Below are positions 29,146 through 52,296 of a stretch of DNA of 64,000 nt, one piece after another. The position numbers were made by a program, and so were the translations under genes. This DNA comes from Escherichia coli (GTDB lineage: Bacteria > Pseudomonadota > Gammaproteobacteria > Enterobacterales > Enterobacteriaceae), in NCBI RefSeq assembly GCF_044324785.1, contig NZ_CP172127.1. The stretch is one strand, 5' to 3'. The notes beneath the pieces are model-generated. The model saw only the letters and a list, made by a program, of their open reading frames with translations, was not told the DNA's origin and ran no database searches. The stretch's first letter is position 1; each line of letters begins with the position of its first letter.

Positions 29146-31206
29146 ATGCTACCAAAAGCCGCCCGCATTCCCCACGCCATGACGCTTCATGGTGATACGC
29201 GCATCGATAATTACTACTGGCTGCGGGACGATACGCGTTCTCAGCCGGAAGTCCTGGACTACCTGCAACAAGAAAATAGTTACGGTCATCGGGTGATGGC
29301 CTCGCAACAAGCCTTGCAGGATCGCATCTTAAAGGAAATCATCGATCGCATTCCGCAAAGAGAAGTTTCTGCTCCCTACATAAAAAATGGCTACCGCTAT
29401 CGGCATATTTATGAACCAGGCTGTGAATATGCTATCTACCAGCGTCAATCGGCATTCAGCGAAGAGTGGGATGAGTGGGAAACATTGCTCGATGCCAACA
29501 AGCGCGCAGCTCATAGTGAGTTTTATTCGATGGGCGGAATGGCGATTACGCCCGATAACACCATTATGGCGCTGGCAGAAGATTTTCTTTCCCGACGCCA
29601 GTACGGCATTCGTTTTCGTAATCTGGAAACAGGTAACTGGTACCCGGAACTGCTGGATAACGTTGAACCCAGCTTTGTCTGGGCAAATGACTCCTGGACT
29701 TTCTACTATGTTCGCAAGCATCCGGTGACGCTGCTGCCTTATCAGGTCTGGCGTCACGCCATCGGTACGCCAGCATCGCAAGATACACTGATCTACGAAG
29801 AAAAAGACGATACCTATTACGTCAGCCTGCATAAAACGACCTCGAAGCATTATGTAGTCATTCATCTGGCCAGCGCCACCACCAGTGAAGTTCGCCTGCT
29901 GGACGCGGAAATGGCCGATGCCGAGCCGTTTGTTTTTCTGCCGCGCCGCAAAGATCACGAATACAGCCTTGATCACTACCAGCATCGGTTTTATCTGCGT
30001 TCCAACCGCCATGGCAAAAACTTTGGCTTATACCGTACCCGTATGCGTGATGAGCAACAGTGGGAAGAGTTAATTCCGCCACGCGATAACATTATGCTGG
30101 AAGGGTTTACGCTGTTTACCGACTGGCTGGTGGTTGAAGAACGTCAGCGCGGGTTAACCAGTTTGCGCCAAATCAACCGCAAGACCCGGGAAGTCATTGG
30201 CATTGCCTTTGATGATCCGGCCTATGTGACCTGGATTGCCTACAATCCAGAACCTGAAACCGCGCGATTGCGTTATGGTTATTCTTCCATGACCACACCA
30301 GACACTTTGTTTGAACTGGATATGGATACCGGTGAGCGTCGTGTATTAAAACAAACAGAAGTGCCCGGTTTTGATGCGGCGAATTACCGCAGTGAACACC
30401 TGTGGATAGTCGCCCGTGATGGCGTCGAAGTTCCGGTTTCGCTGGTCTACCATCGCAAACATTTTCGCAAAGGACACAACCCGCTACTGGTGTATGGCTA
30501 CGGTTCTTACGGCGCAAGTATTGATGCCGATTTCAGTTTTAGCCGCTTGAGTTTGTTGGATCGTGGATTTGTCTACGCCATTGTCCATGTTCGCGGCGGT
30601 GGTGAGCTGGGGCAACAATGGTACGAGGACGGTAAATTTCTGAAGAAGAAAAATACGTTTAATGATTATATTGATGCCTGCGATGCATTGTTAAAACTGG
30701 GCTATGGCTCTCCTTCACTCTGTTATGCGATGGGCGGGAGTGCGGGGGGCATGTTGATGGGCGTTGCAATTAATCAACGCCCGGAATTATTCCACGGCGT
30801 TATCGCCCAGGTACCGTTTGTTGATGTTGTAACAACGATGCTTGATGAATCAATTCCTCTTACCACTGGTGAGTTTGAAGAGTGGGGGAACCCGCAGGAT
30901 CCGCAATATTACGAGTACATGAAAAGCTACAGCCCGTATGACAACGTCACCGCACAGGCTTATCCGCATTTACTGGTAACGACCGGTTTACACGATTCTC
31001 AGGTGCAATATTGGGAACCGGCAAAATGGGTCGCTAAATTGCGCGAGCTGAAAACCGATAACCATCTTTTATTGCTCTGTACCGACATGGACTCAGGCCA
31101 TGGCGGTAAATCTGGCCGCTTTAAATCGTACGAAGGTGTAGCGATGGAATATGCTTTTCTGGTCGCGCTGGCGCAGGGAACATTACCCGCTACGCCTGAG
31201 GATTAA
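29146..31206 (+). CDS. ptrB: Oligopeptidase B (S9 prolyl oligopeptidase family)
   Basis: 686-aa ORF; serine nucleophile in GGSAGG; recognised PtrB. Confidence 0.95.
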
Positions 31207-31865
31207 GTATTTTCCAGATAATGTTTCAGTGTTAAACGCAGCTCCGGGCTCATGCTGTCCAGGTTATTAAACAACCAGCGCAGATAGCCCGGATCGCGTT
31301 CGGCAACGTCGGAAACCGCTTTGCCACGGTATTTGCCAAAGGTGAAGGTCGTCATCAACGACGGACGTCCGGTGATATCGGCCATCTGTTCTGCCGTCCA
31401 GCCGGAGGTGTTCATAATATCGATAAGCAACGCAGCGGTGATATAACAGTCATACAACGCGCGGTGATGATGCAGGCCCGGCGGCGTCTGTACATTGAGC
31501 TTCCGTGTTTTATATAACGCCATATTGCTGTACTTGATCCCTGGCCATAAACGACGGGCCAGTTTCATAGTGCAAATCCACTCACCGGGCATCTCAGGCA
31601 GTACGCGGCGGTCAAAGCTGGCGTTGTGCGCGACATACCATTCACTACCGTAATAGTGCGGGATCACATCTTCAATCCACGGTTTATCGGCGACCATGGC
31701 TTCGGTGATGCGATGAATCGCCATCGCTTGTGGACTAATAGGACGATCGGGGCGCACCAGGTGGCTCATGGGGTTGACGATTTTTCCGTCAATGACATCA
31801 ACAGAGGCAATCTCAACGATCCCTCCCTGCAAACCGCAGGTTTCTGTATCGATAATGCGCAACAT
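31203..31865 (-). CDS. exoX: Exodeoxyribonuclease X (DnaQ-like 3'-5' exonuclease)
   Basis: ORF 31203..31919 trimmed to internal ATG (220 aa, [12 protein letters not shown]...); coordinates follow the ORF track. Confidence 0.88.
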
Positions 31866-31888
31866 GGCATGCTCCAGGCCGAAAAAGC

Positions 31889-32545
31889 CTAGCGTAATGG
31901 AATGATATCGCCTTGCCAACCCTGTGATGAACGCTGACCGACTAACAATAATGAACCACGATCGGCGCGAACGATGAGACGACCATGTTCATCCCATAGT
32001 GCACTGTTACCACGGGCATTTGCCATCAGCACGGCAATTGAGTACTGATGTGAAAAAAATTGTAAGCGGCGGGTAGATGCCAGTAGGTCGGGTTCCCCCA
32101 GACATTGCCCTGTCGTAAACAGTGAACAGGTCGGGTCCATATCCATACCTTGCGGTTGTTCATCGACCACCGTGATGGTTCTGGAACGACGGCCCAGACA
32201 TGCACCATGACTCTGATGGTAGATCCCTGGCGTTTTTCGCCACGGTGCGAACACCGCAATTCCACGAATAAAGCGATCGTTATATTCAACGGGAAGGCCG
32301 GCAATGATGGTCATTCGCCAGGTCGTTGCAGCATAACAAAGCGGGTCTAACAGCGAGAGATCGGGTGGGGCAGGAAGGGCACGTCGCGAATAATCACACC
32401 CCAGTAAAGAAAGCGATGGAAAAACTAACAGCTGACATTGTTGCCTGGCGGCGGCCCTCACAAACTCCAGATGATGAGCTACCTGTTCGGTGAGTGAGGT
32501 TTTACGAGGCTCATATTGCGCTGCTGCAACTTTCCAGAACGACAT
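31889..32545 (-). CDS. yobB: Carbon-nitrogen hydrolase family protein
   Basis: 218-aa ORF recognised as YobB. Confidence 0.85.
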   Translation of the reverse strand: MSFWKVAAAQYEPRKTSLTEQVAHHLEFVRAAARQQCQLLVFPSLSLLGCDYSRRALPAPPDLSLLDPLCYAATTWRMTIIAGLPVEYNDRFIRGIAVFAPWRKTPGIYHQSHGACLGRRSRTITVVDEQPQGMDMDPTCSLFTTGQCLGEPDLLASTRRLQFFSHQYSIAVLMANARGNSALWDEHGRLIVRADRGSLLLVGQRSSQGWQGDIIPLR

Positions 32546-32646
32546 AATGACTTCCTTTTCAAAATGACTGCAAATTATGGGGGCGGTTTAGAAAATACTC
32601 ATAATTTAGCAGGCGTTATGTAAGAAAGTGTAACTCTGTATAAGTT

Positions 32647-32877
32647 TTATTTAAGTTTGGGCTCGTAAGGTAAACGTGACAGATTGACCGAAGCCAAACG
32701 GTGGGCGATAAGCCGCTCGCGAAACCAGCTGCGCAAATGTTCAGGCTGTTCACGTTCAACTGCTTCAGCGATCACCGGCATATTGTAGCGTTCTTTAAAT
32801 GCCACCCCGGCCGCAGCCAAATCGACATTCACTTTATCCATTTCTGTTTGATCCAGTTTAGCCAGATTCTTCAGCAT
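32647..32877 (-). CDS. holE: DNA polymerase III theta subunit
   Basis: ORF 32647..32964 trimmed to internal ATG (76 aa, [31 protein letters not shown]...). Confidence 0.88.
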
Positions 32878-50758: not shown

Positions 50759-50803
50759 TCGAATCCACTGATCTGAAGTGTGAATACGCTTCAATCTCGC
50801 TAT

Positions 50804-50830
50804 AAAGCCTCGTCGAATGCGAGGCTTTTT
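50804..50830 (+). terminator. Rho-independent terminator after cspC
   Basis: aaagcctcg-tcgaat-gcgaggcttt hairpin followed by T-run. Confidence 0.8.
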
Positions 50831-50923
50831 ACTTTGCTTTCTCTTCGCTCCAGTCGTTCGGATATTTGCCCGCCGCGTGATTCGCGTTACACTTGCGGCC
50901 TTTAGTATCCTGCCGGAGTTGTC

Positions 50924-51733
50924 ATGTCGTTTTCCTGTCCACTTTGCCATCAGCCTCTTTCGCGTGAAAAAAACAGCTATATCTGTCCCCAGCGACATCA
51001 GTTTGATATGGCGAAAGAAGGGTATGTCAATCTGCTGCCCGTTCAGCATAAACGGTCTCGTGATCCGGGCGACAGCGCGGAAATGATGCAAGCACGCCGC
51101 GCATTCTTAGATGCCGGACATTATCAGCCGCTGCGTGATGCAATTGTCGCTCAACTGCGGGAACGGCTTGATGAAAAGGCCACAGCGGTGCTGGATATTG
51201 GCTGTGGTGAAGGGTATTACACACACGCATTTGCCGATGCGCTGCCCGAAATCACCACGTTTGGCCTGGATGTCTCGAAGGTAGCGATAAAAGCGGCGGC
51301 GAAACGCTATCCGCAGGTCACTTTTTGTGTTGCTTCCAGCCACCGTTTGCCGTTTTCCGATACCAGTATGGACGCCATAATACGTATTTACGCGCCGTGT
51401 AAAGCAGAAGAATTAGCGCGAGTAGTGAAGCCTGGCGGTTGGGTCATTACTGCCACGCCGGGACCGCGACATTTGATGGAGCTGAAGGGGCTGATTTACA
51501 ATGAAGTACATCTTCATGCACCACATGCAGAACAACTGGAAGGTTTTACATTACAGCAGAGTGGTGAGTTGTGTTATCCGATGCGTCTTCGCGGTGACGA
51601 AGCCGTCGCATTATTGCAGATGACGCCGTTTGCCTGGCGTGCGAAGTCAGAAGTCTGGCAAACACTGGCAGCAAAAGAAGTGTTCGACTGCCAGACGGAC
51701 TTTAATATTCACCTCTGGCAGCGTTCTTATTAA
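50924..51733 (+). CDS. rlmA: 23S rRNA m1G745 methyltransferase
   Basis: 269-aa ORF; N-terminal Cys4 zinc motif (CPLCH...CPQRH), SAM motif LDIGCGEG. Confidence 0.92.
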
Positions 51734-52296
51734 CCGTGGAAGTGCGTCCAGAGGATCTGGACGCCGATGCCGATCAGTACCAGCCCACCGAGAATTTCCG
51801 CTTTTTTCCCAATAATTGAGCCGATAAAGCGACCAACCATCATCCCTAATGTCGACATAATCAAGGTTGCACAACCAATGGCCAATGCGGTCGCGATAAT
51901 GTTGACCTGCAGAAAGGCGAGACCAACACCCACAGCCATGGCATCCAGGCTGGTGGCAATCGCGGTGGTTACCAGTAGCCAGAAACCGTGTCGACGGCGC
52001 GGTTCTTGATCTTCATCATCTGCGCCACGAAAACCCTCAATAATCATTCGCCCGCCGAGGAATATCAGCAGCACAAACGCAATCCAGTGGTTCCATTCAA
52101 GGACAAACCGGCTGGCTAACATGCCCATTCCCCAGCCGATCAGCGGCGTCAGGGTTTCGACGGCACCAAAAATAAGGCCGGTTCGCAACGCTTCAGAAAA
52201 TTTCGGTTTATGGAGGGTGGCACCTTTACCGATTGATGCAGCAAATGCATCCATCGACATACCAAACGCAAGAAGAACAGTAGCAGTGATATTCAT
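51730..52296 (-). CDS. mntP: Manganese efflux pump MntP
   Basis: ORF 51730..52350 trimmed to [18 protein letters not shown]... (188 aa); convergent 4-nt overlap with rlmA. Confidence 0.9.

Follow-up and report, generated by a model that had tools for sequence, protein, structure and literature searches.

Tightly convergent gene ends in the torZ-to-yoaA segment of Escherichia coli and the 3'-end signals placed within their partner genes

The torZ-to-yoaA chromosomal segment of Escherichia coli, a stretch of 64,000 nucleotides (nt) that we call the window, contains several pairs of convergent genes whose stop codons overlap or almost touch. A preliminary description of this sequence called attention to three of them, namely the 4-nt overlaps of ptrB with exoX and of rlmA with mntP and the direct abutment of pphA and yebW, and it proposed that such arrangements leave no room for terminators and imply an antisense overlap of the 3' untranslated regions (3' UTRs) and possible transcriptional interference. 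Our analysis shows that the 3'-end signals of these genes are not absent, they are relocated into the last codons of the partner gene. Very probably, these junctions are ordinary compacted convergent gene ends, where each transcript reads through into the partner gene, is terminated by Rho, and has its mature 3' end set by an embedded stem-loop.

The geometry of the three pairs is fully borne out by the listing of open reading frames (ORFs), by the raw sequence, and by the RefSeq annotation of both E. coli N3 and K-12 MG1655, which shows the same arrangement at all three places (Table 1). The window is colinear in order with N3, the closest complete genome to a 1-kb probe of the ptrB/exoX junction (99.5% identity), and is reversed with respect to K-12 MG1655. 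At ptrB/exoX and at rlmA/mntP both stop codons lie within a common TTAA, which makes these two pairs exact instances, without any difference, of the known class of 4-nt tail-to-tail overlaps (PMC2174442). The pphA/yebW pair reads TAA directly followed by TTA with zero spacing (35671/35672), and is thus a near neighbour of the class and not a member. Two further near neighbours were missing from the otherwise correct list of tight pairs: ruvC (+, ends at 9364) and yebB (-, from 9366), which are separated by 1 nt, and yoaE (+, ends at 57955) and pdeD (-, from 57959), which are separated by 3 nt. The genes at the 4-nt overlaps are real coding genes; they are annotated in RefSeq, the homologues of ExoX carry the PF00929/PF20600 domains, and MntP and RlmA, which retain 65-99% identity across 80 species, are both supported as coding genes.

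Table 1. Positions of the genes, shared stop motifs and stem-loops at the tight convergent junctions of the window
Feature	Position	Strand	Remarks
ruvC/yebB junction	9364..9403	+	stem-loop 9372-9397; ruvC 3' end ~9403 (+39), inside yebB
ptrB (oligopeptidase B) coding sequence	29146..31206	+	stop TAA 31204-31206; ORF listing, annotation
Stem-loop on the exoX side, GGCGTAGCGGGTAATGTTCCCTGCGCC	31170..31196	-	lies in the final ptrB codons, 7-33 nt beyond the exoX stop; folding free energy -14.6 kcal/mol; candidate
exoX (exodeoxyribonuclease X) coding sequence	31203..31865	-	annotated, 663 nt; stop is the reverse complement of 31203-31205
Common TTAA of ptrB/exoX	31203..31206	.	both stops inside; raw sequence
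pphA (Ser/Thr phosphatase 1) coding sequence	35015..35671	+	stop TAA 35669-35671; ORF listing, annotation
yebW (63-residue DUF1482 protein) coding sequence	35672..35863	-	stop adjoins the pphA stop; ORF listing, annotation
rlmA (23S rRNA m1G745 methyltransferase) coding sequence	50924..51733	+	stop TAA 51731-51733; ORF listing, annotation
Stem-loop on the mntP side, GCTGCCAGA...TCTGGCAGT	51687..51722	-	lies in the final rlmA codons, 8-43 nt beyond the mntP stop; folding free energy -16.7 kcal/mol; candidate
mntP (Mn2+ exporter) coding sequence	51730..52296	-	stop is the reverse complement of 51730-51732; ORF listing, annotation
Common TTAA of rlmA/mntP	51730..51733	.	both stops inside; raw sequence
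Stem-loop in the rlmA 3' UTR, GCGTCCAGaggatCTGGACGC	51744-51764	+	followed by the mapped 3' end at 51770
yoaE/pdeD junction	57953..58028	+	strong stem-loop 57997-58028 in the last codons of pdeD

Transcript ends, stem-loops and Rho regions

The rlmA transcript has its dominant 3' end inside mntP. In the published K-12 Term-seq data of Adams et al. 2021 (PMC7815308, Supplementary file 1), which is also the source of the bicyclomycin data used below, this end is found at MG1655 1906214(-), 37 nt past the stop codon; its place in the window was obtained from the coordinates of MG1655 rlmA (1906251-1907060). It is classed as "primary, antisense" to mntP, and was detected both in LB at an optical density (OD) of 0.4 and in M63 minimal medium. 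The end lies 6 nt past the rlmA stem-loop, which is not followed by a U-tract (tail CGAUGCCG), and the stretch from the stem-loop through the 3' end (51744-51770) is antisense to mntP codons 176-185. The hairpin has a folding free energy of -14.4 kcal/mol as a minimal 21-nt stem and of -15.8 kcal/mol in a 34-nt context. A Rho region with a score of 10.2 (p = 1e-31) is located roughly at the junction (PMC7815308 Supplementary file 2), and the best C/G window past rlmA begins at +40, directly behind the mapped end. The TTAA of this pair has hairpins on both sides; the one in the last codons of rlmA (tail CGAACACU) is a candidate 3'-end hairpin of mntP, as judged from its fold and position. Our search of the literature for papers naming both mntP and rlmA gave only an unrelated one.

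The ruvC transcript ends in much the same way, at K-12 1946817(-), 39 nt past its stop and classed as "primary, antisense yebB" in the Term-seq data. This end is 5 nt past the stem-loop CGCCUCGG...CUGAGGCG, again without a U-tract (tail UUUCCACU), and a Rho region antisense to yebB is found at 1946742(-) (score 7.8, p = 1e-29). A 3' end right after a stable, U-less stem-loop was thus found for both rlmA and ruvC. The published bicyclomycin data show Rho-dependent termination at two more junctions: one Rho region, with a score of 6.3, is antisense to ptrB and lies 471 nt beyond the exoX stop, and another, with a score of 5.5, is antisense to pdeD at a distance of 252 nt downstream of the yoaE stop. 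At the four junctions together (rlmA, ruvC, exoX and yoaE), the Rho regions lie from roughly the junction, as in rlmA, to ~470 nt inside the partner. The list of Rho regions (PMC7815308 Supplementary file 2) has no entry for pphA or yebW.

The five tight junctions have 10 stops, and the 80-nt stretch beyond every one of them was folded and compared with a null of 400 random windows antisense to coding sequence. Hairpins of -14.6 kcal/mol or lower were found past five of the 10 stops (ruvC -17.2, exoX -14.6, rlmA -15.8, mntP -16.7 and yoaE -25.0), against 10% of the null windows (binomial p = 0.0016); four of the five begin 5-8 nt past the stop, and the remaining five gene ends fold weakly, with no strong hairpin in either direction at yebW/pphA. 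The yoaE-side hairpin (tail CAUUUGG) was matched in strength by 0 of the 400 null windows, and the exoX-side hairpin (tail AGCGCGAC) sits at the 10% tail of this distribution. By its position the latter is a candidate protective 3'-end hairpin of the yobB-exoX transcript. None of the five strong hairpins is followed by a U-tract. A classic intrinsic terminator was considered and dropped, as in a consensus scan none of these stops has a terminator-like site downstream of it; the nearest match, at 35741-35725 (-), is within yebW and upstream of the yebW stop.

These 3' ends resemble the Rho-dependent ones described by Dar and Sorek 2018 (PMC6061677), in whose model PNPase and RNase II shorten Rho-terminated mRNAs until a protective stem-loop that lacks a U-tract is reached, the rut site being just downstream of it. 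The likeness includes the sharp ends of rlmA and ruvC 5-6 nt after the stem-loop, the bicyclomycin-sensitive readthrough, and the stretch of C over G just downstream of the mapped end. The difference is that the stem-loop and the presumed rut site are located here inside the coding sequence of the partner, and not in an intergenic 3' UTR. The antisense strand has more C than G in 85% of the genes of the window, and the suppression of antisense transcription by Rho is credited to Peters et al. 2012, as cited in PMC7815308. Roomy junctions of the window (kdgR, lpxM, pykA, znuB, yoaC and purT) have such antisense Rho regions in the partner as well; running into the partner is therefore general and not special to tight pairs.

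The proposed antisense overlap of the 3' UTRs thus finds support in the published data. In addition to the Term-seq ends of rlmA and ruvC inside mntP and yebB, the exoX-ptrB, yebW-pphA and pdeD-yoaE pairs are among the 165 E. coli convergent pairs with overlapping transcription identified by ExcludonFinder (PMC12288877). Transcripts ending before they reach the partner gene, the finding that would speak against the overlap, are not what the K-12 Term-seq ends and this list record. The statement that there is no room for terminators holds for the intergenic space, but not for the junctions as a whole, since the stem-loops and Rho regions lie within the coding sequence of the partner. The support for transcriptional interference is confined to a single-cell trend described genome-wide for excludons as a class (PMC12288877).

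Frequency of tight junctions and their conservation

Enumeration of the possible stop codon pairs shows that convergent stop/stop overlaps of 1, 2, 3 and 5 nt are impossible and that the minimum is 4 nt, which is permitted by only the four tetramers CTAA, CTAG, TTAA and TTAG. All that a 4-nt overlap needs is a pyrimidine at the end of the last sense codon of each gene, and it therefore has almost no cost at the protein level; the last sense codons are TAT and GGT at rlmA/mntP, and GAT and ACT at ptrB/exoX. Such gene overlaps are said to have been surveyed earlier by Fukuda et al. and by Johnson and Chisholm. The jump at overlap length 4 was described by Lillo and Krakauer 2007 (PMC2174442), who named the same four tetramers, counted 58 convergent overlaps in E. 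coli, and pointed out that some of them hold terminators within the coding sequence of the partner. A survey of intergenic distances (PMC10666635) covers same-strand pairs only and hence cannot supply a base rate for the convergent ones.

The spacings at the 13 convergent junctions of the window are 164, 1, 147, 131, 54, 163 (made by an insertion sequence), -4, 0, 45, 143, -4, 3 and 119 nt, with negative values for overlaps, and five of the 13 are 3 nt or less. For comparison, 21 convergent junctions between coding sequences in three arbitrary 50-kb regions of K-12 were set against the 12 native junctions of the window, the one made by the insertion sequence being excluded. The 4-nt overlap occurs at 3/21 control junctions (sieB/ydaF, ydbJ/hslJ and flk/yfcJ; malZ/acpH are 4 nt apart) and at 2/12 native ones (Fisher p = 1.0), and the excess of spacings of 3 nt or less in the window (5/12 vs 3/21) is not significant (p = 0.11). 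A local enrichment of tight junctions was rejected on these two values. With five of the 33 pooled junctions, the -4 class is nonetheless a genuine spike; the class of 4-nt overlaps is real and non-random, but the window is not exceptional.

The junctions are also conserved. Of the 5,426 complete E. coli genomes, 5,424 contain a match to 80% or more of the length of the ptrB/exoX probe. In a scan for MntP with one genome per species, which covered 80 Enterobacteriaceae loci, rlmA is convergent downstream of mntP in all 80 and overlaps it by 4 nt in 64, with all four permitted tetramers seen, the three other than TTAA appearing in related species. The other spacings are 3 nt apart in ten species, 1, 4 and 16 nt apart once each, and overlaps of -13 nt once and -48 nt twice. 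The exoX/ptrB pair is kept in six other genera at spacings of +34, -10, +3, -4, +6 and -4 nt, and thus stays tight, between -10 and +34 nt, in genera ranging from Escherichia to Erwinia; the yebW/pphA spacing, where the pair is present, is 0, -4 and 0 nt. Such lasting tightness with drifting exact geometry fits a passive compaction down to the coding limit, and not selection for a particular overlap.

The rlmA 3' hairpin falls in mntP codons 178-186. Over 65 sequences, 83% of its cells pair, against 16-48% for slid controls. Compensatory changes, affecting both sides, were found at four of the nine pairs, with 31 double-changed cells, a result reached by 0 of 500 shuffles. One covarying pair joins position 2 of MntP codon 179 with position 1 of codon 184, in the combinations Val/Thr (U-A), Ala/Thr (U-G) and Ala/Ala (C-G); a second one consists of two wobble positions. 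The mntP-side hairpin is at -14.6 kcal/mol or lower in 76% of the 80 species and its stem is strongly conserved. Covariation was tested in this hairpin as well and is essentially absent, and we make no claim of RNA-level selection for it.

The exoX/ptrB junction of Salmonella enterica (positions 6700-6733 of locus L085) deserves a separate comment. ExoX is 12 residues longer there and a 34-nt spacer separates the two genes; inside this spacer is a single hairpin that can form on either strand (-22.0 and -17.8 kcal/mol). Compared to E. coli, this is a switch between "embedded" and "intergenic" designs at an orthologous junction. A prophage integrase region takes the place of pphA/yebW at that locus. 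Bidirectional intrinsic terminators are comparable to the tight junctions of the window in that both transcripts of a convergent pair are ended; they differ in that the tight junctions have no common intergenic hairpin and no U-tracts, unlike the Salmonella spacer with its both-strand hairpin. The window has an intergenic bidirectional terminator of its own at yoaH/yoaC, 119 nt apart, where the Term-seq ends 1894457(-) and 1894498(+) surround one hairpin with A- and T-runs.

Proposed explanation and its rivals

The observations can be accommodated by a simple course of events. The TTAA overlap is the tightest layout for two facing genes that have no common sense codon, and, because no intergenic space is left, each transcript necessarily enters the partner gene. 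Beyond the stop codon, where the ribosome has left, the transcript is untranslated and antisense to a coding sequence, and therefore tends to be C-rich and G-poor. Rho loads on this RNA and ends transcription within a few hundred nt, as the published bicyclomycin data show for rlmA, ruvC, exoX and yoaE. The 3'-to-5' exonucleases would then trim the RNA to the stable U-less stem-loop in the last codons of the partner, leaving a short, defined 3' UTR; such trimming is a published general model, which we infer to apply to rlmA, ruvC, exoX, mntP and yoaE. With such ends, the two mature mRNAs at a junction would be complementary over some tens of nt.

Several points weigh against this account. The transcript ends and the Rho data come from published K-12 datasets and not from the strain of the window, the junction sequences being nearly identical, and the bicyclomycin DirectRNA-seq assay places Rho regions only within 800-nt windows. 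The hairpin enrichment is based on just 10 gene ends, and no strong downstream hairpin is found within 80 nt of the stop for pphA, yebW, ptrB and pdeD. For ptrB, exoX, pphA, yebW and mntP, the curated Term-seq lists contain no 3' ends, and the hairpin-plus-Rho scheme is an extrapolation there; yoaE, like exoX and mntP, has a hairpin but no mapped end. The conservation of the mntP-side hairpin, for its part, could stem from constraint on the RlmA protein.

A different view of the same junctions is that they are regulatory excludons, with the overlap being maintained for mutual exclusion: RNA polymerases would meet head-on, RNase III would cut the 3' ends where they pair, and the expression of one gene would fall while the other is on. 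At mntP/rlmA this would set Mn2+ export against rRNA methylation. The published data do show the overlap of neighbouring transcripts expected of a convergent excludon. The three catalogued pairs among the five are in a published list of convergent excludons (PMC12288877), which they resemble in the short intergenic distance and in having terminators in the transcription unit of the neighbour; genome-wide, single cells express both genes of an excludon pair less frequently, a trend reported for the class as a whole (PMC12288877), and the Enterobacteriaceae preserve both the convergent gene order and the tight spacing. However, mntP-rlmA and yebB-ruvC are not in that list, despite their Term-seq overlap, and all five pairs are known by transcript overlap and not by mutual exclusion. 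The functions of the partners are unrelated; the geometry drifts at exoX/ptrB (-10, -4, +3, +6, +34) and yebW/pphA (0, -4) as it would under passive compaction; the readthrough is not peculiar to tight pairs, being seen at roomy junctions too; and very few double-stranded RNAs were found at 3' UTRs by p19 capture (PMC12288877). We consider a regulatory role of this kind unlikely.

It is even harder to attribute the ends to collision, in which converging polymerases dislodge each other at hairpin elements flanking the junction with no need for Rho or U-tracts. SEnd-seq is reported to have revealed a large number of bidirectional terminators between convergent genes of E. coli that are non-canonical and Rho-independent, and a mechanism of collision plus stem-loop is backed by single-molecule experiments (bioRxiv 10.1101/2022.10.23.513370); the hairpins on both sides of the rlmA/mntP TTAA would suit it well. 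This class is defined as Rho-independent, however, and in four of the five cases the downstream reads rise strongly with bicyclomycin, the Rho scores being 5.5-10.2. The collision model also works best for highly expressed pairs (bioRxiv 10.1101/2022.10.23.513370), and most of the genes here are too weakly expressed to have curated 3' ends. Taken together, these points make collision quite improbable. There is next to no chance that the overlaps are artefacts, produced by wrongly called gene ends or by ORFs extended by accident. According to one study (PMC2478687), annotated overlaps in prokaryotes are frequently errors of annotation when they are long, and the longest ORFs of exoX, mntP and yebW do begin upstream of the annotated starts. 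A 3'-end overlap, on the other hand, depends on the stop codons alone, and these are unambiguous; the proteins on either side of every junction are conserved and have Pfam domains, and the junctions recur in 5,424/5,426 E. coli genomes (ptrB/exoX) and in 64/80 species (rlmA/mntP). With unambiguous stop codons and conserved C-termini on both sides, the artefact reading was rejected.

Neighbouring elements and biological meaning

Other features of interest surround the three pairs noted at the beginning. Between yebE and ptrB lies ISEc46, an element of the IS200/IS605 family (window 27338-28989), with a TnpB-like ORF at 27338-28507 (-) and TnpA at 28564-28989 (+). It is present in strain N3 and not in K-12, where the yebE-ptrB gap is ~208 nt, and it makes an extra convergent junction, yebE/tnpB. 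Just upstream of pphA is the pair of antisense small RNAs SdsR (+) and RyeA/SraC (-), which overlap fully (window 34740-34884), score 114 and 175 bits with Rfam, and have Term-seq ends mapped on both strands; their antisense overlap is far more extensive than the stop codon overlaps. For yebV a separate intrinsic terminator has been mapped (K-12 3' end 1922050; window 35907-35958 (-)), with a promoter-like site overlapping the tail of this terminator, and because of this yebW is probably transcribed apart from yebV, or through readthrough.

The start of rlmA is ~93 nt downstream of the very strong terminator of cspC (yobF-cspC), which has its hairpin at window 50804-50828 (region 50373-50930); the Term-seq end of cspC, K-12 1907153, is the most abundant 3' end of the region. 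Readthrough from cspC may drive rlmA, and hence the antisense transcription into mntP. The mntP leader contains a Mn2+ (yybP-ykoY) riboswitch at window 52427-52523 (-), which with 41.9 bits (E = 6e-10) falls just below the Rfam gathering score of 45, so that a default scan misses it. The published Rho data place a termination region in the same leader (K-12 1905535 (+), score 3.5). Upstream of the leader, at window 52640-52735, there is a long AT-rich inverted repeat (RNA fold -22.6 kcal/mol, z = -4.6) with weak matches to microRNA-precursor models on both strands. This repeat is probably the MntR operator region of the mntP promoter and not an RNA element.

Facing genes are most commonly packed in this way, as catalogues have long recorded. 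The arrangement of the tight junctions, their frequency, the readthrough into the partner and its dependence on Rho are already in the literature, and three of the five pairs are already catalogued. As a discovery, the present case has little weight; it is useful as a calibration point. Scans of genome sequences should not treat 4-nt convergent overlaps of the TTAA type as anomalous, given that about 1 in 7 convergent junctions has one. One could go further and suggest that selection at the RNA level acts on embedded 3'-end stem-loops so strongly that it shapes the C-terminus of the partner protein, with the pairs co-evolving and perhaps being conserved excludons. We hold this to be doubtful; if it were true, tight convergent pairs would be co-evolving units, perhaps excludons that couple otherwise unrelated functions. 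What is added here is that 3'-end hairpins inside the coding sequence of a neighbour can persist and covary across a bacterial family, and the rlmA hairpin offers a small, concrete case of a constraint by RNA structure on protein-coding sequence.

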